A DNA stretch of 64,000 nt from Candidatus Parcubacteria bacterium (GTDB taxonomy: Bacteria > Patescibacteriota > Minisyncoccia > UBA6257 > 2-01-FULL-56-20): contig DAIEHA010000002.1 of NCBI GenBank assembly GCA_027355945.1, forward strand, positions 15,071-79,070, written 5' to 3'. Both the position numbers and the translations under genes were made by a program. Shown here piece by piece: positions 10,703-23,972 of this stretch (its first letter is position 1; each line of letters starts with the position of its first letter). The notes beneath the pieces were generated by a model. It worked only from the letters and a program-made list of their open reading frames with translations, searched no databases and was not told the origin of the DNA.

Positions 10703-11575
10703 TTAAGAAGTTTCGCGAGCTGTTTCCGCGATTCGTTCTGCGGCAAGTACTTCGCGCGCGGTGAAGATGAACGCGGGCACTGCGACGAGTAGCATGAAAA
10801 AGGTGATAAGCACGTATCCTGCATCCACTGGAAGATTGCGATCGAGGCCGAGAAGCGTGATGATGCCAAACACGCCGAAGAGGATCCCTCCGAAGAACAG
10901 CGTGCGTCCGCCGGTCTTCGCACCGATCTGCTGGATGGCGCGCTCGCTCAGGCGGAACCATCGGAGTGATGCGCCAAAGAGGTATCCTATGACGACGAGT
11001 GCGATCATGGTCCCGATCCCGAAAACGAGCCCCGGCAGAAATCCAAGCCATGGGCTTCGCATCGCCGGCGCAGCGATGGTGTTCACGAAAAGCGAGAATC
11101 CGCCGAGACCGAACCCGGCGATGAAACCGTGGATCATCGTCCAGCGGATGGGGGGCACGCCCTTATCGCCGGATGGCGTTTCGTGATGGTGCGCTGAGAG
11201 CAATCCGCTGACCGATCTTCCCATCTCCGCTTCGCTCTTATGATGATGGCCGAGAAGATGCAAATGGATGTACCGATTCTTGCCGATGACGAAGAAGCCC
11301 GCAGCGGACATCGCGATGCCCACCACGAGATATACGATACCGTTAATATCCGGGTTGAGGAGGAACGGGGCGAGCGCAAGATAGGCGATCTCCGAGAGGA
11401 GCATCCGTTGTACCGTGAATGCGGCGGAAAAGAAAAGACCCGCCTTCATTCCCTCGCGTCCGCTTGCCCCCCCGACCGCATAGCTGAACGTGATCGGCCA
11501 TGTGTGCTCGTCCGGCAGCACGCCATGGAGGATGCCGAAGAAGAAGGAATAGATTACCGCAGTGAGGGGGGTCAT
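10703..11575 (-). CDS. Putative NicO/RcnA-like metal (Ni/Co) transporter with His-rich loop
   Basis: 290 aa polytopic protein with the loop HLHLLGHHHKSEAEMGRSVSGLLSAHHHE between TM bundles. N-terminal GILHGVLPDEH segment. Family assignment is inferred. Confidence 0.5.
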   Translation of the reverse strand: MTPLTAVIYSFFFGILHGVLPDEHTWPITFSYAVGGASGREGMKAGLFFSAAFTVQRMLLSEIAYLALAPFLLNPDINGIVYLVVGIAMSAAGFFVIGKNRYIHLHLLGHHHKSEAEMGRSVSGLLSAHHHETPSGDKGVPPIRWTMIHGFIAGFGLGGFSLFVNTIAAPAMRSPWLGFLPGLVFGIGTMIALVVIGYLFGASLRWFRLSERAIQQIGAKTGGRTLFFGGILFGVFGIITLLGLDRNLPVDAGYVLITFFMLLVAVPAFIFTAREVLAAERIAETARETS

Positions 11576-14411: not shown

Positions 14412-14753
14412 TTACTTTGTGCTCGTTGCTTGCGGGGCATTTTGATAATATCCTCGCATCATGCCGCCGGGCCCGTAATAATAGGTCGGGGCTCCCGCAG
14501 ACTGGGTGGGAGCCGCGTTTTGGCTCTGATAGTAATATCCACCCATCATCGGCATATAGCCGTAGGGATAAGGAGAGCCGCCATAATAGCCATTTTCCAT
14601 CATGCCGGGCCACATGCCATATCCGTAATAGCCAAGGGTAGTTTTGAACTCACCCACTTTGACGCCCATACAGAAGACCACGATCAAGATAAGAATGCCG
14701 AGGACCCAGCGAAGCAATTTATGATGACCGTCTTCGTGCGTATGTTCTTCCAT
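14412..14753 (-). CDS. Small Met/Tyr/Gly-rich membrane-anchored protein with His-rich N-terminus (possible metal-binding)
   Basis: ORF to 14873. The internal start MEEHTHEDGHHKLL precedes one TM, then a GYYGYGMWPGMMENGYYGG...MPMMGGYYY tail. Divergent from csoR. Confidence 0.5.
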   Translation of the reverse strand: MEEHTHEDGHHKLLRWVLGILILIVVFCMGVKVGEFKTTLGYYGYGMWPGMMENGYYGGSPYPYGYMPMMGGYYYQSQNAAPTQSAGAPTYYYGPGGMMRGYYQNAPQATSTK

Positions 14754-14810
14754 AGTAATTAATTTTTTGTTGGCGACCTTTATCCTAAGACGACAGTACA
14801 TTATGTATAA

Positions 14811-14825
14811 TACCCCTATAGGGTA
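14811..14825. promoter_or_regulatory. CsoR-type operator box 1 (TACCC-N5-GGGTA)
   Basis: Inverted repeat TACCCCTATAGGGTA overlapping a TATAAT hexamer (14806..14811). Resembles the B. subtilis CsoR box. Confidence 0.55.
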
Positions 14826-14843
14826 TACTGTCAAATACTCAAT

Positions 14844-14873
14844 TTGACACGCGATACCCAGTGGGGGTATCAT
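14844..14873 (+). promoter_or_regulatory. csoR promoter: TTGACA-N18-TATCAT with operator box 2 (14855..14869) in the spacer
   Basis: TTGACA at 14844..14849, TACCCAGTGGGGGTA inverted repeat, TATCAT at 14868..14873. Identical architecture to 21275..21304. Confidence 0.6.
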
Positions 14874-14879
14874 AAGGAT

Positions 14880-15149
14880 ATGGATAAGGTAATAAAGAAA
14901 AAAGCCTTACGAAGGCTTCAGATCGTAAAGGGGCAGATCAAAGGCCTCGAAAAAATGATCGACGATGAAAAGTATTGCATCGACGTTATTACACAATCAT
15001 CCGCTATCAAGCAGGCTCTTTCTGGCGTTGAAGATCTTTTATTAGAGAACCATCTTGCTACACATGTGGCGATGCAAATGAAGAGCGGAGAAAGTAAGAA
15101 GGCGACCGCAGAGATGGTAAAAGTATATAAGCTATCAAAGCGAATATAA
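14880..15149 (+). CDS. csoR: CsoR/RcnR-family (DUF156) metal-sensing transcriptional repressor
   Basis: RLQIVKGQIKGLEKMIDDEKYCIDVITQSSAIKQALSGVEDLLLENHLATHV matches the CsoR-family core with conserved Cys and His ligands. ORF track start is 14844; 14880 chosen (near-leaderless from the TATCAT -10). Confidence 0.8.
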   Translation: MDKVIKKKALRRLQIVKGQIKGLEKMIDDEKYCIDVITQSSAIKQALSGVEDLLLENHLATHVAMQMKSGESKKATAEMVKVYKLSKRI

Positions 15150-15150
15150 T

Positions 15151-15564
15151 ATGAGATCAGTGCTTGCGATCGTGATTATGGTGGCTGCGATCTTCGCTCT
15201 CGTGGCGGGTAGTTTCGCCATGGTCAATATGGGATCCGGCAGTCATACAAACTGTCTTGCGGCGATTCCCGGGAGTCCAAAATGTCTTGGAAGGATGGAT
15301 CTGTTTCAATTCGCAATAACGCATATTAGTACACTCCTCGGCATATCGCTCGGGATCGTCAGTCCAATAACAGCTTTTCTCTTGGCTGCGTTCGCAGTGC
15401 TCGTATGGATCGCAGTTTCTAATTCGTTCAACTTACTGTTGGGTTCCTTGGGCTATTCAAGGGTTTTTATTGAGGCAGAAATAGGTAGCGCTCGTAAGCA
15501 ACACCACTGGATCTCCCTTCTTGAGAAACGCGATCCGTCTTCGTCTTGCGCTATGAACGTCTAA
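15151..15564 (+). CDS. Hypothetical membrane protein co-transcribed with csoR
   Basis: Starts 1 nt after the csoR stop. 137 aa, three TM helices, a Cys pair (HTNCLAAIPGSPKC), and C-terminal SSSCAMNV. Confidence 0.5.
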   Translation: MRSVLAIVIMVAAIFALVAGSFAMVNMGSGSHTNCLAAIPGSPKCLGRMDLFQFAITHISTLLGISLGIVSPITAFLLAAFAVLVWIAVSNSFNLLLGSLGYSRVFIEAEIGSARKQHHWISLLEKRDPSSSCAMNV

Positions 15565-15599
15565 GCGAATCAATCTCGCCGCGTCGTTTATAGCGCCCC

Positions 15600-15622
15600 A
15601 AACCGCATCCCTGCGGTTTTTT
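15600..15622 (+). terminator. Rho-independent terminator
   Basis: AACCGCA-TCCC-TGCGGTT followed by TTTTT. Confidence 0.55.
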
Positions 15623-15822
15623 CGTTGCACATAAATTCATCGGTCTATTGCCATGCATAAAAGCAAAAAGGTCGTTATCAGTAAAACAGAGCCATTCTTC
15701 ATCATCCTGACACTTGTCGGTGCGTTCGCGTTGTTTACATAGCAAACGTTGCGGATGGCGCAATATCACATGAGTGCGCCCCCTCTCCAGTAAAGCACTA
15801 CCACTATAATCTCCCAATCCAA

Positions 15823-16314
15823 ATGAATAGAAAACCAACGTTAGAAGAGTTCCTTAAAAAAATTGAATCAACAAAAGAAAAGGCGGGCGTTGATCTGTCG
15901 ACGGCTGAAGATCTGAGCATCGCAGTCATGAACCTCATAAGCCTCGAAGAGCATTTTTTCTTCACGGGAATAAAAACGAAAAAAGATGAGTACTTCGACA
16001 CAGTGCAAGAGATCCGGGAGTTGCGTAAACAATTTCTCACGCAATTAATGCCTAAGCACGAAGGGGAAACGTGGTGCATCTCAAAACATCTTCTTTCCGC
16101 CACGATGCGCCTTATTGAAGTGGGCAATAAGTTGCAATCGGAAGGCATAAAAGAAAAAGCGAAGCAAACATTTGAAGGAGCCTATAAGGTCTACTCGATC
16201 TTTTGGGCCCTCAAATTGGATCTCGTTAATGGCAGCGAGATTAAGGAAGCGGCAAGGGGCGGCTCCGACTTAGAAACAATTATCGCTAAGATGGCCGATT
16301 GCTGCAATGAATAG
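15823..16314 (+). CDS. Hypothetical cytoplasmic protein ending in DCCNE
   Basis: 163 aa, helical and charged, no TM. C-terminal vicinal cysteines. Confidence 0.45.
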   Translation: MNRKPTLEEFLKKIESTKEKAGVDLSTAEDLSIAVMNLISLEEHFFFTGIKTKKDEYFDTVQEIRELRKQFLTQLMPKHEGETWCISKHLLSATMRLIEVGNKLQSEGIKEKAKQTFEGAYKVYSIFWALKLDLVNGSEIKEAARGGSDLETIIAKMADCCNE

Positions 16315-16331
16315 TAACAACGATAAATAAA

Positions 16332-17297
16332 ATGGAACACGAAACACATCATCACGAACAAGAAACAGAGTTAATGGAAGAGCTTCTTCCGGAGACGGTG
16401 GTAAAAAGCCATAAAAAAGACTTGTTCTTACCACTCAGTATTCTTGCAGTAGCACTGCTTATCGCTTCAGCATTCGTCTATCTTGGCAATCAGAGAACGG
16501 CATCGGGGCGCAGCACTCCTATACAAAATATCTCAGCCGCTACATTGCAGGAAAAGGTAATTCCGGCAAACGGCGTGATATTGCCGGTTCGCTGGGGCGA
16601 TCTCGGGAGGCAGCTTGTATCGGCGGGTGTCATTAATGAGCCGCAATTCCTCGCGCTCTATGCGCAGCGCGGGGGGTTATCGCCCGACATGAAGGCGCTT
16701 CTTGATAATGCAGATAATGGGAATCTCATTATTACATTGCAAAATTCCGGCACCATATTAAATCTTTTATGGGCGCTTGGCCTTGGGAACAATAATCCAA
16801 TCCTTACGAGCGGGCCCATGGAGAATCCTCAATACGGAGGCGCAAAGAACTTTGCTTCGACTGGCGGTTGGACGCTTTCAGTCGGCAATGCGATGAACCA
16901 TTATAGCGCTCATTCGTTCGTAACGCTTACCGCCGATCAGCAAGCACGTGTGGTGCGTGTCGCACAAAACATCTATCGCCCGTGCTGCGGAAACTCCACG
17001 TTATTCCCGGATTGCAATCATGGCATGGCGATGCTTGGACTCCTTGAGCTCATGGCATCGCAGGGCGTTTCGGAAGCGGACATGTACAAGGCCGCGCTCG
17101 CGGTGAATTCGTATTGGTTCCCTGATACCTATCTCACACTTGCAACCTACTTCCAAAGCCAGGGCGTCGATTGGAGTGCTGTCGACTCAAAGACGGTGCT
17201 TGGTGCTGGATATTCAAGTGCTCAAGGATACCAGCAGATAGTAAATAAAATAACTCCAGTGCAGGCGCAATCGTCGGGCGGCTGCGGGGTGCAATAA
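16332..17297 (+). CDS. Membrane-anchored extracytoplasmic protein with His-rich N-terminus and C-terminal SGGCGVQ tail
   Basis: 321 aa. MEHETHHHEQETE N-terminus, single TM, Cys-rich PCCGNSTLFPDCNHG motif. The C-terminal tail is shared with the next ORF. Confidence 0.55.
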   Translation: MEHETHHHEQETELMEELLPETVVKSHKKDLFLPLSILAVALLIASAFVYLGNQRTASGRSTPIQNISAATLQEKVIPANGVILPVRWGDLGRQLVSAGVINEPQFLALYAQRGGLSPDMKALLDNADNGNLIITLQNSGTILNLLWALGLGNNNPILTSGPMENPQYGGAKNFASTGGWTLSVGNAMNHYSAHSFVTLTADQQARVVRVAQNIYRPCCGNSTLFPDCNHGMAMLGLLELMASQGVSEADMYKAALAVNSYWFPDTYLTLATYFQSQGVDWSAVDSKTVLGAGYSSAQGYQQIVNKITPVQAQSSGGCGVQ

Positions 17298-17313
17298 CCA
17301 AAATTGAAATCTT

Positions 17314-17505
17314 ATGAAATCAACGAATGACAATTTCTGGTTATTCATAAGCATCGGATTGTTTGTAATCATCGTCGGAACTGCGGGAGCTTATGCATTT
17401 CGGTCATTCAGTACGAATGCCGTATCACAAGAGAACGCCACTGTCGTTGCGCCATCACAAACCCAAACACCTTCATCCGGCCAAAGCGGCGGATGTGGGG
17501 TCTAA
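17314..17505 (+). CDS. Small membrane-anchored peptide ending in SGGCGV
   Basis: 63 aa with one TM (FWLFISIGLFVIIVGTAGAYAF). Its C-terminus QSGGCGV parallels the upstream protein's SSGGCGVQ although encoded by different codons. Confidence 0.45.
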   Translation: MKSTNDNFWLFISIGLFVIIVGTAGAYAFRSFSTNAVSQENATVVAPSQTQTPSSGQSGGCGV

Positions 17506-17510
17506 TCGCT

Positions 17511-18374
17511 ATGGAAACAATAATCAGTACATCACTCATTGCGGCATTTATCGCAGGCATCGCGGCCTTGTTCGCGCCATGCTGCGTTACGGTGCTTCTG
17601 CCCGCATACTTCGGTTCGATCTTTCGCACGAGGCGGAAGGTGTTCCTCATGACATTCATTTTCTTCCTCGGCATCTTGACCGTATTCCTTCCGTTAGGAC
17701 TCGGTTTCTCGATGCTTGGACAGGTGTTCAGTCGTTATCATCGCGAGATCTTCACGGTCATTGGTATGGTACTTTTCGCTTTGGGAATCTCACTTCTCTT
17801 AGGAAAGAGGCTCCCTATGCCGAAATCAATGCGCCTCAAACCGGAACTCACTGGAAATGAGAACGCTGGATCAGTGTATCTTCTTGGCATCTTCTCCGGC
17901 ATCGCAACCACTTGTTGTGCGCCGGTACTCGCGGGAGCGCTCGCGCTTTCGGTGTTGCCGGGTTCGTTCATCTGGGGAATTATCTACACACTCGCCTACG
18001 TGCTCGGCATGGTGACCCCACTCTTTGTCCTTGCGGCAGCACTTGACCGGACCAAGATGTCCGAACGTCTCCTTGGCGTGCGGAAGCCGTTGGAATTCAC
18101 GCTATTCGGAAAGGCCATTCGCATGAGGATCTCCGACCTCCTTGCGGGACTGACTTTCTCGATCATGGGAGCACTCACGCTCTACTGGGCATCGATGAAT
18201 CAGGTTGCCGTGCATTCGATGTTGCAAGTGAATATCAACATCTATCTCACGCAGCTGAATAATTTCCTTACCCCCTATATCGGGTGGGTGCCGCAATACG
18301 CGTGGGCGGTCATGTTCGTCGGACTCCTCGTAGCGCTCGTGGTGCTTGCTCTCAAGCAATTCAAAAAGGACTGA
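17511..18374 (+). CDS. CcdA/DsbD-superfamily thiol-disulfide transporter-like membrane protein with vicinal Cys pairs
   Basis: FIAGIAALFAPCCVTVLLPAYF parallels the CcdA TM1 motif (SPC-x3-LLP-x-Y). GIATTCCAPVLAGAL parallels the TM4 motif. Both carry CC instead of a single Cys, as in MerT TM1. ORF track start is 17493. Confidence 0.7.
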   Translation: METIISTSLIAAFIAGIAALFAPCCVTVLLPAYFGSIFRTRRKVFLMTFIFFLGILTVFLPLGLGFSMLGQVFSRYHREIFTVIGMVLFALGISLLLGKRLPMPKSMRLKPELTGNENAGSVYLLGIFSGIATTCCAPVLAGALALSVLPGSFIWGIIYTLAYVLGMVTPLFVLAAALDRTKMSERLLGVRKPLEFTLFGKAIRMRISDLLAGLTFSIMGALTLYWASMNQVAVHSMLQVNINIYLTQLNNFLTPYIGWVPQYAWAVMFVGLLVALVVLALKQFKKD

Positions 18375-18392
18375 TTAAAAAAACATAAAACC

Positions 18393-19013
18393 ATGAAAAA
18401 AAATACATCAAACGGTACTATGGCGGTTAAAGTGATCGGCATTTTTGCTATCTCGATATTTATCCTCGGAGGTATCGCTCTACTCAGTTATGAGAACAGC
18501 GACGCAGCACCTCAGGCGGGCGCCACAGGGTCTGGTAGCTTCGGCAGTGCACTCATCGGCAAGCCCGCGCCGCAATTTTCGCTGAAAGATCGCAACGAAG
18601 TCACATACACCCCAGATAGTTTGAAAGGAAAGAATGTGATTCTTTTCTTTAACGAGGGAATTATGTGCTATCCCGCATGCTGGAATCAGATGGTCGCGCT
18701 CGCGACGGATCCTCGGTTTCAAACATCCGATACGATCGCGCTTTCCATCGTGATCGACTCTCCGGATCAATGGCAGTCGGCGATCCAGAAAATGCCGGAC
18801 CTTGGGAAGGCAACCGTTCTCTTTGACACCGATAAATCCATTTCGCAGGAATACGGGATGCTCACCGCACTATCTTCGATGCATTACGGTTCCTACCCAG
18901 GTCATTCGTTCGTGATCCTCGACAAACAAGGGATCGTCCGCTTCGTCTATGATGACCCAGCTATGGGCATTGATGACGATCGTATCGCGGCCGATCTCCA
19001 AACGTTGAAATAG
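18393..19013 (+). CDS. SCO1/SenC-like copper-binding thioredoxin-fold protein
   Basis: Signal anchor. KNVILFFNEGIMCYPACW gives a CxxxC motif after a beta strand, as in SCO proteins. Downstream HSFVILDKQGIVRFVY matches the conserved SCO His region. Confidence 0.65.
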   Translation: MKKNTSNGTMAVKVIGIFAISIFILGGIALLSYENSDAAPQAGATGSGSFGSALIGKPAPQFSLKDRNEVTYTPDSLKGKNVILFFNEGIMCYPACWNQMVALATDPRFQTSDTIALSIVIDSPDQWQSAIQKMPDLGKATVLFDTDKSISQEYGMLTALSSMHYGSYPGHSFVILDKQGIVRFVYDDPAMGIDDDRIAADLQTLK

Positions 19014-19014
19014 C

Positions 19015-19464
19015 ATGCATAGACCGATCACGAAATCCTTTATCGGAGGGTCTATTGCGACGGGCACGCTCATCGCGGCATATTTCGCAATCGTTTCCCT
19101 CATATCGGGATTTGCATTCGCCGGAAGTCAGTTTGTGGAATTCTGGTTCTACTTCGTGGGATTGGCACTCGGCTTCGGCATTCAGATCGGGCTTTACATC
19201 TATCTGAAGCAACTGGTCCGTGGCGCAAGCGGCGGGCCAGTGGTGGCGGTGACGGGGATGACCTCGACCGCCGCCATGGTTGCGTGCTGCACCCACTATC
19301 TCGTGAACATTCTGCCAATTCTTGGAATAAGCGCCTTCGCCTCATTTGTCGGCGAATATCAGGTTCAGTTCTTTTGGGTTGGTATCGCATTCAATCTTGT
19401 GGGTATCGTCTATATTGCAAGTCGAGTTATAAAAGTCAGGGGGAATATGCAGCACATTGCATGA
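19015..19464 (+). CDS. Hypothetical four-TM membrane protein, possibly the N-terminal half of a split ICMT-like methyltransferase
   Basis: 149 aa, hydrophobic. Ends 4 nt into the next ORF, in a different frame. Contains ACCTHY. Confidence 0.45.
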   Translation: MHRPITKSFIGGSIATGTLIAAYFAIVSLISGFAFAGSQFVEFWFYFVGLALGFGIQIGLYIYLKQLVRGASGGPVVAVTGMTSTAAMVACCTHYLVNILPILGISAFASFVGEYQVQFFWVGIAFNLVGIVYIASRVIKVRGNMQHIA

Positions 19465-19748
19465 ACAAATCAAATCTTGCATGGACTGTCCTCTGTGAAG
19501 CACAGAAAGAACATACGCTTGCAATCGCGGGGCCGTATGCCCGCATTCGTCATCCACAATACATGGCATTCATACTTGTTATGCTTGGGTTCCTGTTTCA
19601 GTGGCCGACCATTCTCACGCTTGCTATGTTTCCGGTACTTCTGTGGATGTATGTGCATCTCGCGCGAACCGAAGAGAGAGAAGCGCAAGCGATCTTTGGC
19701 GTGGAATGGAATGCATATGCGGCGCAAACACCCGCGTTCATTCCCTAA
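19461..19748 (+). CDS. Isoprenylcysteine carboxyl methyltransferase (ICMT/PEMT) family C-terminal catalytic fragment
   Basis: AGPYARIRHPQYMAF (the RHPxY motif) and EEREAQAIFGVEWNAYAAQTPAFIP (C-terminal EE...FG..Y..Y motif). Only ~95 aa from the ATG at 19461. Confidence 0.5.
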   Translation: MNKSNLAWTVLCEAQKEHTLAIAGPYARIRHPQYMAFILVMLGFLFQWPTILTLAMFPVLLWMYVHLARTEEREAQAIFGVEWNAYAAQTPAFIP

Positions 19749-19790
19749 TGGAAACGAAACAATAAATCATTGAAATAAAAATCAACACCT

Positions 19791-19966
19791 ATGTTCAGAA
19801 TCTTTAAGAAAAAGTGTCCGATTTGCAGGATGGCACTCGAAGAAGGAAAACAATATCCTGAGGAATTCGGTAAACAATTCTGTTCGGAAAGATGCAAGAC
19901 ACAGTATCAAGAATTAACAAATAAAAAGAAGCAATCGCAACATTCCAGCCATGGTGGGTGTTGTTA
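19791..19966 (+). CDS. YHS/TRASH-domain small metal-binding protein ending in GGCC
   Basis: Hand translation: MFRIFKKKCPICRMALEEGKQYPEEFGKQFCSERCKTQYQELTNKKKQSQHSSHGGCC. C-x2-C...C-x3-C matches the TRASH/YHS pattern. Shorter than 60 aa, so absent from the ORF track. Confidence 0.55.
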
Positions 19967-19979
19967 AGAGTTCAACGCT

Positions 19980-21278
19980 ATGCGGTTATCGTTTCTTTTG
20001 ATCGGACTCGGATTTGTCGCGGTTTTGGCCGTCGGGGGTATTTCGAGTTCTCGTGCAGTAGCTGCAACGGTGGTAGCTACGAGTACTGGCGGCAATGCTT
20101 CGCAAGTCCAGATCAATACGGATAACCAACAGATCGCAGACCTCAACCAAAAAATAGCATCCTACCAAGCGCAACTTCGGAAAGTAGGTGCGGATAAGAA
20201 AACGCTCCAAGCGGCTATTCACGCGCTCGATTTGCAACGCAGCAACGCACAAGTGCAGGTTGCCGTTACCCAACTGCAGATCAACGCAACCCAGGCCCAG
20301 ATCAAACAGTTGGGCGGAGAGATATTGGGAGCGAAGCAGACGATAGCAGGGGATCAGGCGGCGCTCGGAGAATATCTTCAAAGTCTTCAAAAAGCCGACG
20401 ATAAGCCGTTGATCGTGCAGATGCTTTCATCGGGCGGTCTTGTTCAAGCATGGGATGATATTAATGCGACAGTAAAGATGCAAACCGCCGTCCAAAATCA
20501 AATGCAGGCGCTTCGTGTCCAGGAAGACAGCCTTGCCAACTCGCAGACAGTTTCAAAACAGAAACAGGAAGCACTCACATCGCAAAAACAGGCATTGGCA
20601 TCACGGCAGCAATCGCTTATCGCGACGGAACAATCTAAAAGTCAGCTGCTCGCCGAAACCAAGTCGCAAGAATCTGCTTATCAAAAATTGCTTGCCGCGG
20701 CGCACGCGGAGCTCAGTAGCTTCTCGACGTTTACAGAGAACGCGGGCGGATCAAAACTGCTTGCCAATCAGACCAGTTGCGACTCGTGGGGCTGCTATTA
20801 TAATCAGCGTGATTCGGCATGGGGCGCTACTCCTCTTGATGGGACAAAATATACGCTTGCACGCGCAGGGTGCCTCATTGCATCCGTGGCGATGGTGCTC
20901 ACGCATTACGGGTATAAGGATGTGACGCCTGCGACCATCAACTCGAACCCCGATAACTTCGCGGGGTATTCACCCGATCTGCTGCTCGCGTCGATCGACG
21001 TTGACGGTGTGACCGTTATGCGAAAGGCCATCAGGGTGAAAGGTGCCACTGCCGCACGAAAAATTTCAGTTATTGATGCGATGCTTGCGACTGGCCATCC
21101 GGCAATCGTCGGCATGAATGCCCTCGGCGGCACGCATTTTGTCGTACTCACGAGCGGGAGCAATGGTGATTACCTCATGCGCGATCCGTATGTAGCGAAT
21201 GGTAACGGTATCAGCTTCACCTCCTATTATTCATTGAAGGAGATATATAGCATTGCGAAGATCGTGATCGGGAGTTGA
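19980..21278 (+). CDS. Secreted coiled-coil protein with C-terminal C39-like (papain-fold) cysteine peptidase domain
   Basis: Signal peptide, ~250 aa Q/A-rich coiled coil, then SCDSWGCYYNQ...AGCLIASVAMVLTHYGY...GGTHFVVL resembling Peptidase_C39_2 with its Cys and His. PcsB-like architecture. Confidence 0.55.
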   Translation: MRLSFLLIGLGFVAVLAVGGISSSRAVAATVVATSTGGNASQVQINTDNQQIADLNQKIASYQAQLRKVGADKKTLQAAIHALDLQRSNAQVQVAVTQLQINATQAQIKQLGGEILGAKQTIAGDQAALGEYLQSLQKADDKPLIVQMLSSGGLVQAWDDINATVKMQTAVQNQMQALRVQEDSLANSQTVSKQKQEALTSQKQALASRQQSLIATEQSKSQLLAETKSQESAYQKLLAAAHAELSSFSTFTENAGGSKLLANQTSCDSWGCYYNQRDSAWGATPLDGTKYTLARAGCLIASVAMVLTHYGYKDVTPATINSNPDNFAGYSPDLLLASIDVDGVTVMRKAIRVKGATAARKISVIDAMLATGHPAIVGMNALGGTHFVVLTSGSNGDYLMRDPYVANGNGISFTSYYSLKEIYSIAKIVIGS

Positions 21279-21304
21279 CAGTAAATACCCCCTAGGGGTA
21301 TCAT
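21275..21304 (+). promoter_or_regulatory. ATPase promoter: TTGACA-N18-TATCAT with CsoR-type box TACCCCCTAGGGGTA (21286..21300) in the spacer
   Basis: Same hexamers, same 18 nt spacer and same box offset as the csoR promoter. ATG lies 13 nt after the -10. Confidence 0.6.
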
Positions 21305-21316
21305 TAAGAAAATAAT

Positions 21317-23689
21317 ATGAGCCACGACCATATGCATCACAACGAAGGGGCTGTTCGGCAACCGAATTGTGCCTGCGGCAAGAAGTGTTCCGGGTGCTCT
21401 GCGGAAAAACTAGCTGTTAATTGTGGTTGTGATATGGAAGCAAAACAGTTTGAATCCGATATGGATCATTCTTGCTGCCACAATACGCATAATAAAAAGA
21501 CGAGCGCTCCGGCCGTCGCAATGAGTGCGGAGGGAGGATCATATTATACCTGCCCAATGCATCCGGACGTGAGATCGAAAGTGCCCGGTAAGTGTCCGGG
21601 GTGCGGCATGGACCTTATCCTTAAAAAGGGCGAAGTTGCTTCGCAAGGTGATCATGCAAATCATGATATGCAGGCCATGAGCCATATGGATCATGAGGCG
21701 GCGATGACGAGCCCGCAATTGGCGAAGCAGATGGAGCGGGATATGCGTCGCCGATTTTGGATTTCATTCATACTCTCGATCCCGATCTTTCTTTATTCGC
21801 CGGTCGGCACAGCAGTGTTCAAGGTCGCGCTTTGGAGCCCCATCCCAATCAATTGGCTATTATTGATCCTCACCACGCCGATCGTATTTTGGACGGGCTC
21901 GATCTTCATCACAGGGACATACTATTCCCTGAAAGCAAAAAAGCTGAACATGGCGGTGCTTATTGCGACAGGGGTGTTGGCCGCCTATCTTTTTAGCGTT
22001 CTTCTCACCGTTATCGGAAGCCCCGATACTTTTTATGAGGCAGCAGCACTTTTGGTTACCTTCGTGCTCTTTGGCCATTGGATGGAGATGAAGTCTCGGC
22101 GTGGCACTTCGGAATCTTTGCGGGCCCTATTTGATCTTGTGCCGCCAAAGGCAACGGTTATCCGCGATGGTAGGGAGATCTCGATCCCAAGCGCCGAGAT
22201 TATGCATGATGACATTGTAGTAGTGCGGCCCGGCGACAAATTACCGGTGGACGGCGTTGTGACCGAAGGCGAGAGCGCGGTTGACGAGTCGCTCGTTACG
22301 GGAGAATCAATCCCAGTCACAAAAATGATCGGCGACAAAGTCACCGGTGGATCGGTCAACCAAACAGGGACCCTTAAGTTCAAGGCGACGCAGGTGGGTG
22401 CGGAAACCGTCCTCGCGCAGATCATTAAGCTCGTTGAGACGGCCCAGAATTCCAAAGCGCCGGGTCAGCGCCTTGCCGATCGCGCTGCTGGCTGGCTCGT
22501 TATCTTGGCCGTTGGTTCGGGTATCGTGACATTTCTTGGCTGGTATTTTTGGGGCCACACAGGATTCATCACTGCGCTGACATTCGCCATTTCAGCAGTG
22601 GTGATCGCGTGTCCGGATGCTTTGGGGCTTGCGACGCCGACCGCCGTGGCGGTGGGTACTGGTATCGGGGCAAAACATAATATCCTCATTAAAGATGCCG
22701 CGACACTAGAGAACACTTCCAAGTTGAATGCGGTTGTGCTCGATAAAACAGGGACGTTGACGGAAGGGAAGCCAAAGGTAACCGATATTGTTCCACTGAA
22801 TGGTTTTAACGAAGAAGATGTCTTGCGGTATGAGGCGAGCATTGAAAACAATTCCAATCATCCGGTTGCAAAGGCTATCGTGGACGAGGCCGCCAAGCGT
22901 GGCGTTTCTCTCGTGGAGTCTTCGCAATTCGAATCTATCCCTGGCTATGGCATAAAGGCGACCATCCTTGGCAAGCGGGTACTCGCGGGGAATGAACGAT
23001 TGATGACAACGAATGGCGTGGATGTGGTGTCGGCGAGGATGACCATCGACAAGCTTGCGAACGAAGGGAAGACGATCAGCCTGCTTTCCATCGATGAGAA
23101 GATCGCAGGGGTTACCGCCGTCGCCGATACCGTGCGCCCAAGCGCGAAACAGGCGATCAAACGACTCCAAGACCTCGGTATCGAAGTGGCGATGATAACG
23201 GGTGATCATAAAGTCGTCGCGGAAGCGGTCGGAAAGGAGCTTGGCATCAATCGTGTTTTTGCAGAAGTGCTCCCTAAAGATAAAGCGAGTTATGTGAAGA
23301 AACTGCAGGACGAAGGAAAATTTGTTGCGATGGTGGGCGATGGTGTGAATGACGCTCCGGCGTTGGCGCAATCGGACATCGGTATCGCGATCGGCGCGGG
23401 TACTGATGTAGCGATCGAGACCGGTAACATAGTGCTTATGAAATCCGATCCGAACGATATTGCCTCGGCAATCATCCTGAGCAAAGCAACGGTTGCTAAA
23501 ATGAAGCAGAATCTTTTCTGGGCGGCAATCTATAACGTGTCCGCGATTCCCGTTGCGGCAGGCGTATTCGCAGGGATCGGTATCACGCTCCGTCCGGAGA
23601 TTTCGGCGCTCCTAATGTCCGCGTCATCTATTATTGTTGCCACCAATGCGGTGCTCTTAAAGAGAGTCGAAAGTAAGCTTAAAAGCTAA
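21317..23689 (+). CDS. copA: Heavy-metal (Cu+-type) P1B ATPase with N-terminal His/Cys-rich metal-binding region
   Basis: DKTGT phosphorylation site, GDGVNDAP hinge, TM7 YN and TM8 MSASS (P1B-1 Cu+ signature). TM6 motif is CPD rather than CPC. N-terminal [10 protein letters not shown]...GKCPGCGM metal-binding domain plus His-rich stretches. Confidence 0.92.
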
Positions 23690-23723
23690 AAGGTCGCGAG
23701 GTAAATAATTAATTACTATTACA

Positions 23724-23972
23724 TTGCTTTCACTTAAACGGTATGGATGGCTCTGCGTGCTTGGTATCGAAGTGGCCTATGTTGGCTGCATGATCTATCG
23801 CTTTTTCCTGAACGGCGCGGCTCTTAGCTTGCATGCATCACTCTTTGAACTCCTTCCAGGATTTTCATGGGGAATTGGCGGCATGGTCATCGGTGCAATA
23901 GACCTCTTTATCTTTGCATGGATTTTTGCGTGGTACATGGTCTGGATGCACAATACGAGCATCCAGAAATAG
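23724..23972 (+). CDS. Small hydrophobic protein, hypothetical
   Basis: 82 aa, two TM segments. Weak. Confidence 0.3.
   Translation: MLSLKRYGWLCVLGIEVAYVGCMIYRFFLNGAALSLHASLFELLPGFSWGIGGMVIGAIDLFIFAWIFAWYMVWMHNTSIQK

Follow-up and report, generated by a model that had tools for sequence, protein, structure and literature searches.

The question raised by this locus is what a CcdA-family membrane protein with doubled cysteines does, together with a small partner predicted to face outward, in a gene cluster that also encodes a copper-type ATPase. The locus lies in a stretch of 64,000 nucleotides from Candidatus Parcubacteria bacterium (GenBank assembly GCA_027355945.1, contig DAIEHA010000002.1, positions 15,071 to 79,070 of the forward strand), which is called the window here and to which coordinates refer unless another locus is named. 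The cluster occupies 14880-23972 on the plus strand, gene labels run from g0 to g13, and the pair in question is formed by g6 and g7:

17511..18374, plus strand: g6, a CcdA/DsbD_TM-family membrane protein of 287 amino acids (PF02683) with Cys-Cys (CC) in transmembrane helices (TM) 1 and 4

18393..19013, plus strand: g7, an N-terminally anchored, outward-facing peroxiredoxin-fold protein of 206 amino acids (PF00578, PF08534, AlphaFold2 model and Foldseek)

The analyses indicated that the pair probably deals with copper, or with thiols that copper has damaged, at the cell surface. The reading ranked first, at a probability of roughly 45%, is that g6 and g7 form a thiol-based transmembrane relay for copper stress, similar to the Scs system. 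The context is best explained by a CsoR-regulated module that is widespread in Patescibacteria, the candidate phyla radiation (CPR), with versions in DPANN archaea and in at least one other lineage.

Profile comparisons revealed that g6 is a genuine DsbD_TM/CcdA homologue, as the original prediction had proposed. The protein matched PF02683 (DsbD_TM) with 41.8 bits (cut-off 27.1; E = 9.9e-11), its family profile matched CcdA in the Protein Data Bank (PDB entry 5vkv) at E = 5.3e-16, and C24 and C135, the first cysteine of each pair, fall on the catalytic cysteine columns of CcdA. The replacement of each single catalytic cysteine by CC, also claimed beforehand, was read directly in the DNA: TGC TGC at 17580-17585 encodes C24 and C25 (FAPCCVTV), and TGT TGT at 17913-17918 encodes C135 and C136 (TTCCAPV). 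In TM1 (APCCVTVLLP) the proline of the CxxP motif is absent, and in TM4 (TTCCAP) the preceding proline is replaced by threonine while the following one is retained. Among 120 homologues, with identities as low as 52%, no complete sequence lacked either pair, and the columns of C24, C25, C135 and C136 are invariant; this conservation rules out a sequencing error as the origin of the pairs, which are thus genuine. When 1.84 billion cluster representatives (50% identity) were searched exhaustively, both pairs were present in 95 of the best 150 representatives examined, one pair only in 28, mostly fragments, and none in 27, mostly single-Cys relatives, the first of which appeared at about E = 1e-30. 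The start codon at 17511 agrees with the homologues, mostly of 286-288 amino acids; public gene callers begin g6 at an upstream ATG (17493). The resemblance to MerT that had been raised earlier did not extend to family membership: neither PF02411 (MerT) nor PF13386 (DsbD_2) matched g6 even at E ≤ 10.

According to the hydropathy profile, TM1-5 and a C-terminal helix (257-286) of g6 are above the threshold, and a segment at about 203-225 is below it. In our reading this segment is TM6 and the C-terminal helix an extra seventh TM. The positive-inside rule, applied by eye to sequence and hydropathy, then points to an outside N-terminus, six core helices plus the seventh, and a cytoplasmic C-terminus (KQFKKD). 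No soluble domain was found in g6 by Pfam or hydropathy.

The gene immediately downstream encodes C92-Y-P-A-C96 (TGC-TAT-CCC-GCA-TGC, 18666-18680) and H171 within PGHSF (CAT, 18903-18905), so that the CxxxC motif and the conserved histidine described in the original prediction are both there: the C-x3-C motif is kept in 119 of 120 g7 homologues, and the columns that never vary include C92, C96 and H171 as well as M91, W97, M134, M163 and H164. Such a set of invariant Met, His and Trp residues together with cysteines is typical of Cu(I) sites. The assignment to SCO1/SenC, on the other hand, failed. The best Pfam matches of g7 were PF00578 (AhpC/TSA; 2.4e-14, 53.8 bits versus a cut-off of 26) and PF08534 (Redoxin; 1.8e-11), and PF02630 (SCO1/SenC) gave no match even at E ≤ 10. 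Against PDB sequences, the family profile reached 1.1e-8 for a peroxiredoxin, 8e-5 for ResA and 8.3e-3 for an SCO1 chain (4hde). The AlphaFold2 model (predicted local distance difference test score, pLDDT, 83.8) presents a TM helix at 10-30, a disordered linker and a confident domain, for which the top 50 Foldseek hits were all peroxiredoxins (AhpE, E = 1.4e-11, target TM-score 0.82), with a fold that also resembles bacterioferritin comigratory protein (BCP) and 2-Cys peroxiredoxins. Alignment of the g7 family with Bacillus subtilis Sco by hhalign, with the Sco sequence checked against 1xzo, gave a probability of 33%, covered the N-terminal part only and left the cysteine motifs out of register.

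By sequence and modelled fold, then, g7 is an AhpC/TSA peroxiredoxin-fold protein outside the SCO1/SenC family. Since Pfam, the PDB profile search, Foldseek and hhalign all fail to back SCO, the likeness in CxxxC and histidine is to be read as analogy on a peroxiredoxin scaffold and not as homology. HMMER alignments placed C96 on the peroxidatic cysteine column, H171 on the catalytic arginine column and C92 at or beside the catalytic threonine; relative to the peroxiredoxin PxxxT/SxxC motif and its arginine, the proline is lost, the arginine has become histidine, and the threonine position or its neighbour has become cysteine. By these positions the pocket has been rebuilt from Thr/Cys/Arg to Cys/Cys/His. 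Peroxidase activity is unlikely with histidine in place of the arginine and cysteine at or beside the threonine position, and we infer that the Cys/Cys/His site is a dithiol site for a soft metal, Cu(I), instead of a peroxidase site.

The distribution of the pair was investigated by scanning one genome per species for motif peptides, which were found in 343 species, nearly all with Patescibacteria/CPR labels (some of the names are generic and a few probably mis-assigned); 80 loci were retrieved for neighbourhood counts, 28 of them with full 10-kb flanks. The expectation that g6 and g7 form a conserved unit in other genomes was borne out, g7 accompanying g6 in 76 of the 80 loci and abutting it on the same strand in 71. 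Within 10 kb of g6, the 80 loci contained genes for CopA (55), CsoR (51), the orphan extracytoplasmic protein g4 (50) and the orphan membrane protein g8 (44), and among the 28 loci with full flanks g7 was present in 27 and CopA or CsoR in 24. In loci L024 and L033 the operator, csoR, g6 and g7 are contiguous, with gaps of 6-17 nucleotides, and tight rows of operator, csoR, (g2), g4, g6 and g7 occur in L002, L003, L012, L014 and L015. Natural g6-g7 fusions were found in P0108, in P0241 and in an open reading frame (ORF) of 528 amino acids in L026; the hydrophobic segment between the two domains of P0108 fits the proposed topology. In L060 and L070 there are two CC/CC paralogues each, one after g4 and one before g7.

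The public annotation of g6 is "cytochrome c biogenesis CcdA family protein". A heme-motif scan of 1.34 Mb, comprising the window and the loci, found no WWD heme-handling motif and only one ORF with at least two CxxCH motifs. The separation of the pair from cytochrome c maturation, anticipated in the original prediction, was thus upheld, and the annotation is misleading, because no cytochrome c maturation genes are linked to g6 in these loci.

The copper context of the pair in the window is given by the following features, where fractions refer to the 80 loci:

14412..14750, minus strand: g0, in divergent orientation to csoR, a small membrane protein whose N-terminus is rich in His and whose extracytoplasmic tail is rich in Met, Gly and Tyr (from the ORF list)

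14810..14826, no strand: CsoR-type operator 1, ATACCCCTATAGGGTAT, a perfect ATACCC-N5-GGGTAT

14854..14870, no strand: CsoR-type operator 2, ATACCCAGTGGGGGTAT, found by pattern match

14880..15149, plus strand: g1, a CsoR/RcnR-family metal-sensing repressor with fingerprint x-C-H-H (gene call of 89 amino acids; PF02583, E = 3.5e-23)

15151..15564, plus strand: g2, a small membrane protein with a conserved H..C...C (no Pfam match; 10/80 loci)

15600..15619, plus strand: terminator-like hairpin between g2 and g3, with an 8-bp stem followed by a T-run

15823..16314, plus strand: g3, a protein of 163 amino acids without predicted membrane helix, with conserved EGETWCI and a C-terminal CC-x-E (no Pfam match; 20/80 loci)

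16332..17297, plus strand: g4, a membrane-anchored extracytoplasmic protein of 321 amino acids with an orphan fold (50/80 loci)

17314..17505, plus strand: g5, a protein of 63 amino acids with one TM helix and a g4-type tail ending in GGCGV (3/80 loci)

19015..19464, plus strand: g8, an orphan membrane protein with four TM helices, the third of which contains the invariant C91 C92 x H94 Y95 (44/80 loci)

19461..19748, plus strand: g9, a short ICMT/PEMT-like methyltransferase of 95 amino acids, covering only the C-terminal part of the family (PF04140, 1.7e-8; 17/80 loci)

19791..19967, plus strand: g10, a zinc-ribbon-like protein of 58 amino acids ending in HGGCC (from the ORF list and Pfam scan)

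19980..21278, plus strand: g11, a secreted or anchored protein of 432 amino acids with a C39-like peptidase domain (PF13529, 1.1e-5; 2/80 loci)

21285..21301, no strand: CsoR-type operator 3, ATACCCCCTAGGGGTAT, in the ATPase promoter, found by pattern match

21317..23689, plus strand: g12, a P1B ATPase of the Cu(I) type, Cys/His-rich in its N-terminal region and with an HMBD (TIGR01511, 8.6e-173; PF19335 HMBD, 2.6e-12)

23724..23972, plus strand: g13, a 2-TM protein, DUF5676-like, with a conserved Cys (PF18926, 6.5e-4, under the cut-off)

The window contains three perfect ATACCC-N5-GGGTAT palindromes, which are of the classic CsoR operator type; the looser pattern TACCC-N3-7-GGGTA occurred four times versus 0.07 expected, the fourth match being a terminator stem. 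Each palindrome overlaps the -10 element of a sigma70-like promoter scoring 11/12. Operator 1 overlaps that of the minus-strand promoter of g0 (14834-14807, 11/12) and operator 2 is located between the -35 (14844) and the -10 (ending at 14873) of a plus-strand promoter (11/12), this divergent pair being predicted to drive g0 and g1-g2; the promoter at operator 3 (TTGACA-18-TATCAT, 21275-21304) is predicted to drive the g12 ATPase. Besides PF02583, g1 matched NCBIfam RicR (7.7e-18), and its ligand fingerprint (C, +25, +29) is C-H-H (YC...H-LAT-H). Among the CsoR proteins of related loci, 35 have C-H-H and 10 have C-H-C, and in these loci no clear correlation was seen between the fingerprint and the motif type of the ATPase. 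The pattern and promoter searches found neither an operator nor a good consensus promoter before g3, and the hairpin at 15600-15619 separates csoR-g2 from g3-g9. The pair had been placed inside a CsoR-controlled copper block; the operators of the window and the contiguous units elsewhere agree with this, with the hairpin and the missing operator ahead of g3 as a caveat. For that reason, we infer CsoR control of g6 and g7, and copper induction of g3-g9, in this genome from the other genomes.

The distant CC/CC relatives also point to copper. P0269 is a fusion of g6 with HMBD and a P1B ATPase carrying CPH; its neighbours encode a g4 homologue, an anchored rhodanese and a multicopper oxidase, and it is under an ArsR-YHS regulator. 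In P0390, from a Parvarchaeota-type archaeon, g6 is fused to a YHS domain, with a g4 homologue and a redoxin carrying GCQACW and PGHS on its flanks, and a g10-like protein ending in GCC, a YHS protein and a YHS-ATPase are encoded nearby. This archaeal g6-YHS gene overlaps at its end with a small gene for a cytoplasmic Thioredoxin_3 protein (CSRC), a possible electron donor. P0256 ends in HCH and neighbours genes for a cupredoxin, DUF1573, g4, a rhodanese and an HMBD-ATPase. P0413, on a non-CPR contig, ends in CCH and is followed by a redoxin with CxxC and PGHT, a g4 homologue and a canonical single-Cys CcdA; upstream of it lies a Met-rich LTXXQ protein. Over the relatives of g6, the C-terminus is fused to YHS (P0251, P0390), HMBD (P0265) or HMBD plus P1B ATPase (P0244, P0269), or ends in CH, HCH or CCH, such Cys-containing tails or domains being present in about 13 of 67 full-length representatives. 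Regulators at the distant loci include the ArsR-YHS and ArsR types (HTH_5), and the g7 versions of archaea and other non-CPR organisms have CxxC instead of CxxxC. Canonical single-Cys CcdA genes lie near CC/CC genes in L051 (12100-12951), L087 (9068-9925) and L088 (4149-4931), and this coexistence suggests that the two types are non-redundant. COX1 was found only in L087, at a distance of 5 kb; the CPR loci have no linked genes for oxidases.

Taken together, these results are consistent with a relay in which the two mid-membrane catalytic cysteines of g6, expanded to vicinal pairs, would place four thiols at the centre of an alternating-access carrier. The carrier would take up reducing equivalents from a thioredoxin-type donor in the cytoplasm and deliver them to g7, and probably also to g4. 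The cysteines of these proteins would then stay reduced in a copper-loaded, oxidising exterior and could bind Cu(I), pass it on and reverse disulfides formed under copper catalysis. Cu(I) binding, the flow of electrons and the direction of any metal transfer are all deduced here from sequence. The relay is ranked first because homology to CcdA and the catalytic positions are retained, the partner belongs to the thioredoxin superfamily, the two proteins occur as fusions, an archaeal gene has a thioredoxin-like neighbour, and the Scs system provides a precedent. In that system, copper-induced ScsB, of the DsbD family, reduces ScsC as well as PrxL, which resembles peroxiredoxins and has no peroxidase activity (PMC3322552; PMC10907172), and the affinity of ScsC for Cu(I) is subpicomolar (PMC8900818); CcdA-Etrx and ScsB-TlpA-PprX are known envelope pathways (PMC3322552). 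Several points weigh against the relay. Electron transfer alone leaves the invariable doubling of both catalytic cysteines unexplained, and likewise the YHS and HMBD domains, the ATPase fusions and the HCH and CCH tails of the relatives; canonical single-Cys CcdA stands beside CC/CC genes in L051, L087 and L088; there is no thioredoxin gene within the cluster of the window; the hairpin and the missing operator and promoter before g3 loosen the tie to CsoR; and the fingerprint of g1 is C-H-H and not the classic Cu(I) C-H-C.

The main alternative is that g6 has given up electron transport and become a CcdA-derived translocator for Cu(I) or another soft metal, whose four-thiol centre would work by alternating access, with g7 as an outside metallochaperone in the manner of MerP and MerT. 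We regard this as a serious competitor, less probable than the relay, and the same is true of its cytoplasmic side, in which YHS, HMBD, HCH or CCH elements (here g3 and g10) would take or give the metal inside. A translocator would account better than a relay for the doubled cysteines, for the metal-binding tails and fusions on the cytoplasmic side and for the presence of canonical CcdA in the same clusters. CC/CC is strictly kept across a deep clade that is sharply set off from the single-Cys relatives, the extra helix puts the C-terminus of g6 in the cytoplasm by our reading, relatives carry YHS, HMBD, HMBD plus P1B ATPase or CH/HCH/CCH at that end, and almost all conserved neighbours bear CC or Cys/His motifs. 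Vicinal cysteine pairs in membrane helices are a hallmark of Mer transporters, and the superfamily of the DsbD fold includes metal transporters. However, MerT homology is absent (no PF02411 match), g6 retains the cysteine positions of an electron relay and the arrangement with a thioredoxin-fold partner, and Cys-bearing C-termini are found in only about 13 of the 67 full-length representatives. Copper import under a copper-stress regulon would make little physiological sense, and export would duplicate the ATPase without an evident energy source. Moreover, the canonical CcdA of L087 adjoins a g4 homologue, where CPR genomes have a CC/CC paralogue, which hints that the CC/CC and single-Cys types do the same job. 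That g6 is the first metal mover of the DsbD/CcdA fold, a shuttle for Cu(I) with four cysteines and alternating access that thiol-disulfide chemistry may gate or drive, and that trades Cu(I) with g7 as a peroxiredoxin-derived Cys2His chaperone outside and with Cys/His tails, YHS or HMBD modules inside, is a tentative idea that we would sooner doubt than accept; if true, the shuttle, g7 and the orphan g4 and g8 would constitute an unrecognised copper-trafficking pathway typical of CPR and DPANN.

The remaining explanations were judged less probable. An ordinary extracytoplasmic disulfide-reductase or thiol-peroxidase pathway, metal-free and co-regulated through the oxidative and thiol stress that copper causes, would agree with the CcdA homology, the peroxiredoxin/thioredoxin-fold partner, the CxxC of archaeal and distant g7 and the precedent of CcdA-Etrx and ScsB-TlpA-PprX (PMC3322552); we consider it unlikely, because with the arginine of g7 lost and cysteine at or beside the threonine position canonical peroxidase chemistry is improbable, the invariant Met, His and Trp of g7 and the doubled cysteines of g6 are left without a role, and the metal-domain fusions stay unexplained. 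A persulfide relay for sulfane sulfur, by which copper would be detoxified as sulfide or sulfur trafficked, is suggested by anchored rhodanese genes beside CC/CC genes in L081 and L089, a DsrE gene in L088 and the weak match of g6 to NCBIfam TsoB, a rhodanese/DsbD fusion (2.9e-5). This match is explained by the shared DsbD domain, the regulators are C-H-H or C-H-C and not of the two-Cys CstR type, and the cluster of the window has no rhodanese gene, the 80 CPR loci not having been searched for one, so that the idea is very unlikely. Hardly any weight was given to g7 as an SCO1/SenC-type copper chaperone for assembly of a cuproenzyme (CuA/oxidase): the CxxxC with conserved histidine and the weak match to the SCO1 chain 4hde (E = 8e-3) speak for it, but PF02630 is absent, peroxiredoxins are far better in sequence and fold, hhalign with B. 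subtilis Sco gave 33% with misaligned motifs, non-CPR relatives have CxxC, and COX1 occurs only in L087, with no oxidase genes linked in the CPR loci. Least probable of all, and close to dismissed, is that the pair serves to mature cytochrome c as a canonical CcdA-ResA thiol pathway, a view that has the public annotation of g6 on its side and the absence of WWD in 1.34 Mb and the copper genes of the neighbourhood against it. All viable readings share a thiol-based transmembrane link for copper stress, made of a four-Cys CcdA derivative and an outward Cys/Cys/His protein.

Comparison with known systems places the pair, as a relay or otherwise, among familiar parts. Like CcdA (Thermus thermophilus 5vkv) and the DsbD beta domain, g6 has homology over TM1-TM5, cysteines on the same columns of TM1 and TM4, and an adjacent membrane-anchored partner of the thioredoxin superfamily; unlike them, it has doubled catalytic cysteines, no CxxP proline in TM1, by our reading an extra seventh TM with a cytoplasmic C-terminus, metal-binding domains in its relatives, and linkage of the pair to copper genes instead of cytochrome c maturation. 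The Scs system (ScsB-ScsC, PrxL, CueP), a DsbD-dependent copper tolerance, shares with the pair a DsbD-superfamily protein with thioredoxin-fold envelope partners, among them the peroxidase-inactive, peroxiredoxin-like PrxL, and ScsC, which binds Cu(I) (PMC10907172, PMC3322552, PMC8900818). Scs is copper-induced, and CsoR operators and contiguous operator-csoR-g6-g7 units suggest that the pair is likewise under copper control. ScsB differs from g6 in its periplasmic alpha and gamma domains and single catalytic membrane cysteines, ScsC is DsbA/DsbG-like with CxxC, and the two cysteines of PrxL are far apart in sequence, unlike those of g7; moreover, Scs is under CpxRA and not CsoR, and its home is in proteobacteria and not in CPR or DPANN.

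SCO1/SenC proteins share with g7 a thioredoxin-superfamily fold, CxxxC with a conserved histidine, and a membrane-anchored, extracytoplasmic position, and an SCO-like Cys2His copper site in g7 is plausible by analogy; the histidine of g7 is nevertheless at the peroxiredoxin arginine position, and there is neither family-level homology nor a link to oxidase assembly. MerT and MerP resemble the pair in the vicinal Cys-Cys of a TM helix followed by a Pro motif, in the outside dithiol partner and in the cytoplasmic Cys motifs of some g6 relatives. They differ in that g6 has about seven TM versus three, a CcdA fold and no sequence homology to MerT, while g7 has a peroxiredoxin fold and not the ferredoxin-like HMA fold of MerP; the context is copper, with no MerR or MerA seen. 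Peroxiredoxins such as AhpE and BCP/PrxQ are the best sequence and fold matches of g7, with the peroxidatic cysteine column kept, but g7 has a one-residue insertion in CPR, has lost the motif proline and has gained Met and His around the site. In the searchable literature we found no description of a CC-type CcdA or of the CPR copper cluster, and public annotations are generic. Because its parts come from known superfamilies and there are precedents for its likely role, the pair is a new variation and not a new category.

CPR and DPANN account for a large share of microbial diversity and have tiny genomes, and hundreds of species keep this cluster by the copper pump in spite of that, from which it likely matters at the cell surface. 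Two redox scaffolds, the CcdA carrier and the peroxiredoxin site, may have been rebuilt for copper defence, and the pair offers a concrete case for asking whether a DsbD-fold protein can carry metal. The analysis also corrects the automatic label "cytochrome c biogenesis protein" where loci show no linked cytochrome c genes, and it provides functional context for large orphan families such as g4, with more than 7300 homologues.

The g4 family had no Pfam domain in any of 60 members scanned. Its invariant columns read R-P-C-C-x-N...F-P-D-C-N-H-G, and a flexible C-terminal tail, GGCG[VI], retains its cysteine in 119 of 120 sequences. The AlphaFold2 model of g4 has a pLDDT of 83.9; its PDB-sequence profile search was empty, and Foldseek against PDB returned nothing significant. 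A local resemblance to the periplasmic domain of CcmH (2hl7; probability 0.75 over 63 columns) was confirmed neither by the Pfam scans of the 60 members nor by hhalign, for which an unverified Escherichia coli CcmH sequence was used. Homologues of g4 occur in the distant loci L081, L082, L087 and L089, including archaea and non-CPR bacteria. The g8 family has, besides the invariant C-C-x-H-Y in its third helix, a GFGxQ motif; no match was found in Pfam (16 members), in the PDB profile search or by hhalign against the g6 family; g8 is not a half-CcdA. The ATPase g12 has CPD as its transmembrane metal motif rather than CPC or CPH, with NX6YNX4P and MxxSSx5N kept; near related loci (n = 46) the motifs were CPD in 18, CPC in 20 and CPH in 8, and we know of no described CPD subtype of copper ATPase.

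Among the minor observations, small proteins without a predicted membrane helix and ending in cysteine pairs (CC-x-E in g3, GGCC in g10, and GCC, GCCH or HGCC in others) recur in bacteria and archaea (L082 7284-7460, L088 4950-5114, L087 5674-5946), the archaeal loci L082 and L088 having g10-like proteins that end in GCC or GCCH; this recurrence suggests that they may be Cys-tail copper carriers. The ICMT-like gene g9 belongs to a cluster in which the secreted proteins terminate in ...GGCGV(Q). A link between this enzyme and the C-terminal Cys tails is pure speculation, the tails being outside the cell by our reading of the topology. The CC/CC subtype that is paired with g4 comes with membrane-anchored rhodanese and DUF1573 proteins (L081 7058-7786, L089 7464-8060, L088 5127-5381), and these loci also carry a conserved C-x-TPEGYTD-E-W-x-EHM-x-HHP-x-RY-x-EC module. 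Both findings hint that sulfur transfer plays a part in certain variants of this system. A DUF5676 gene is found in the archaeal locus L088 as well. The protein encoded by g11 has a Gln/Ala-rich region, read as coiled-coil, and is probably outside the conserved module, given that only 2 of the 80 loci have it. A scan of g0 with Pfam gave no match, and this gene, which has its own CsoR-type operator and promoter, has a detectable homologue in only 1 of the 80 loci. Upstream in the window (10703-11575, minus strand), a second membrane protein of the DsbD superfamily matched PF13386 (DsbD_2) with 25.0 bits (cut-off 24.9). Lacking a Cys motif and carrying His-rich loops (HLHLLGHHH, SAHHHE), it resembles metal transporters such as NicO/DsbD_2.

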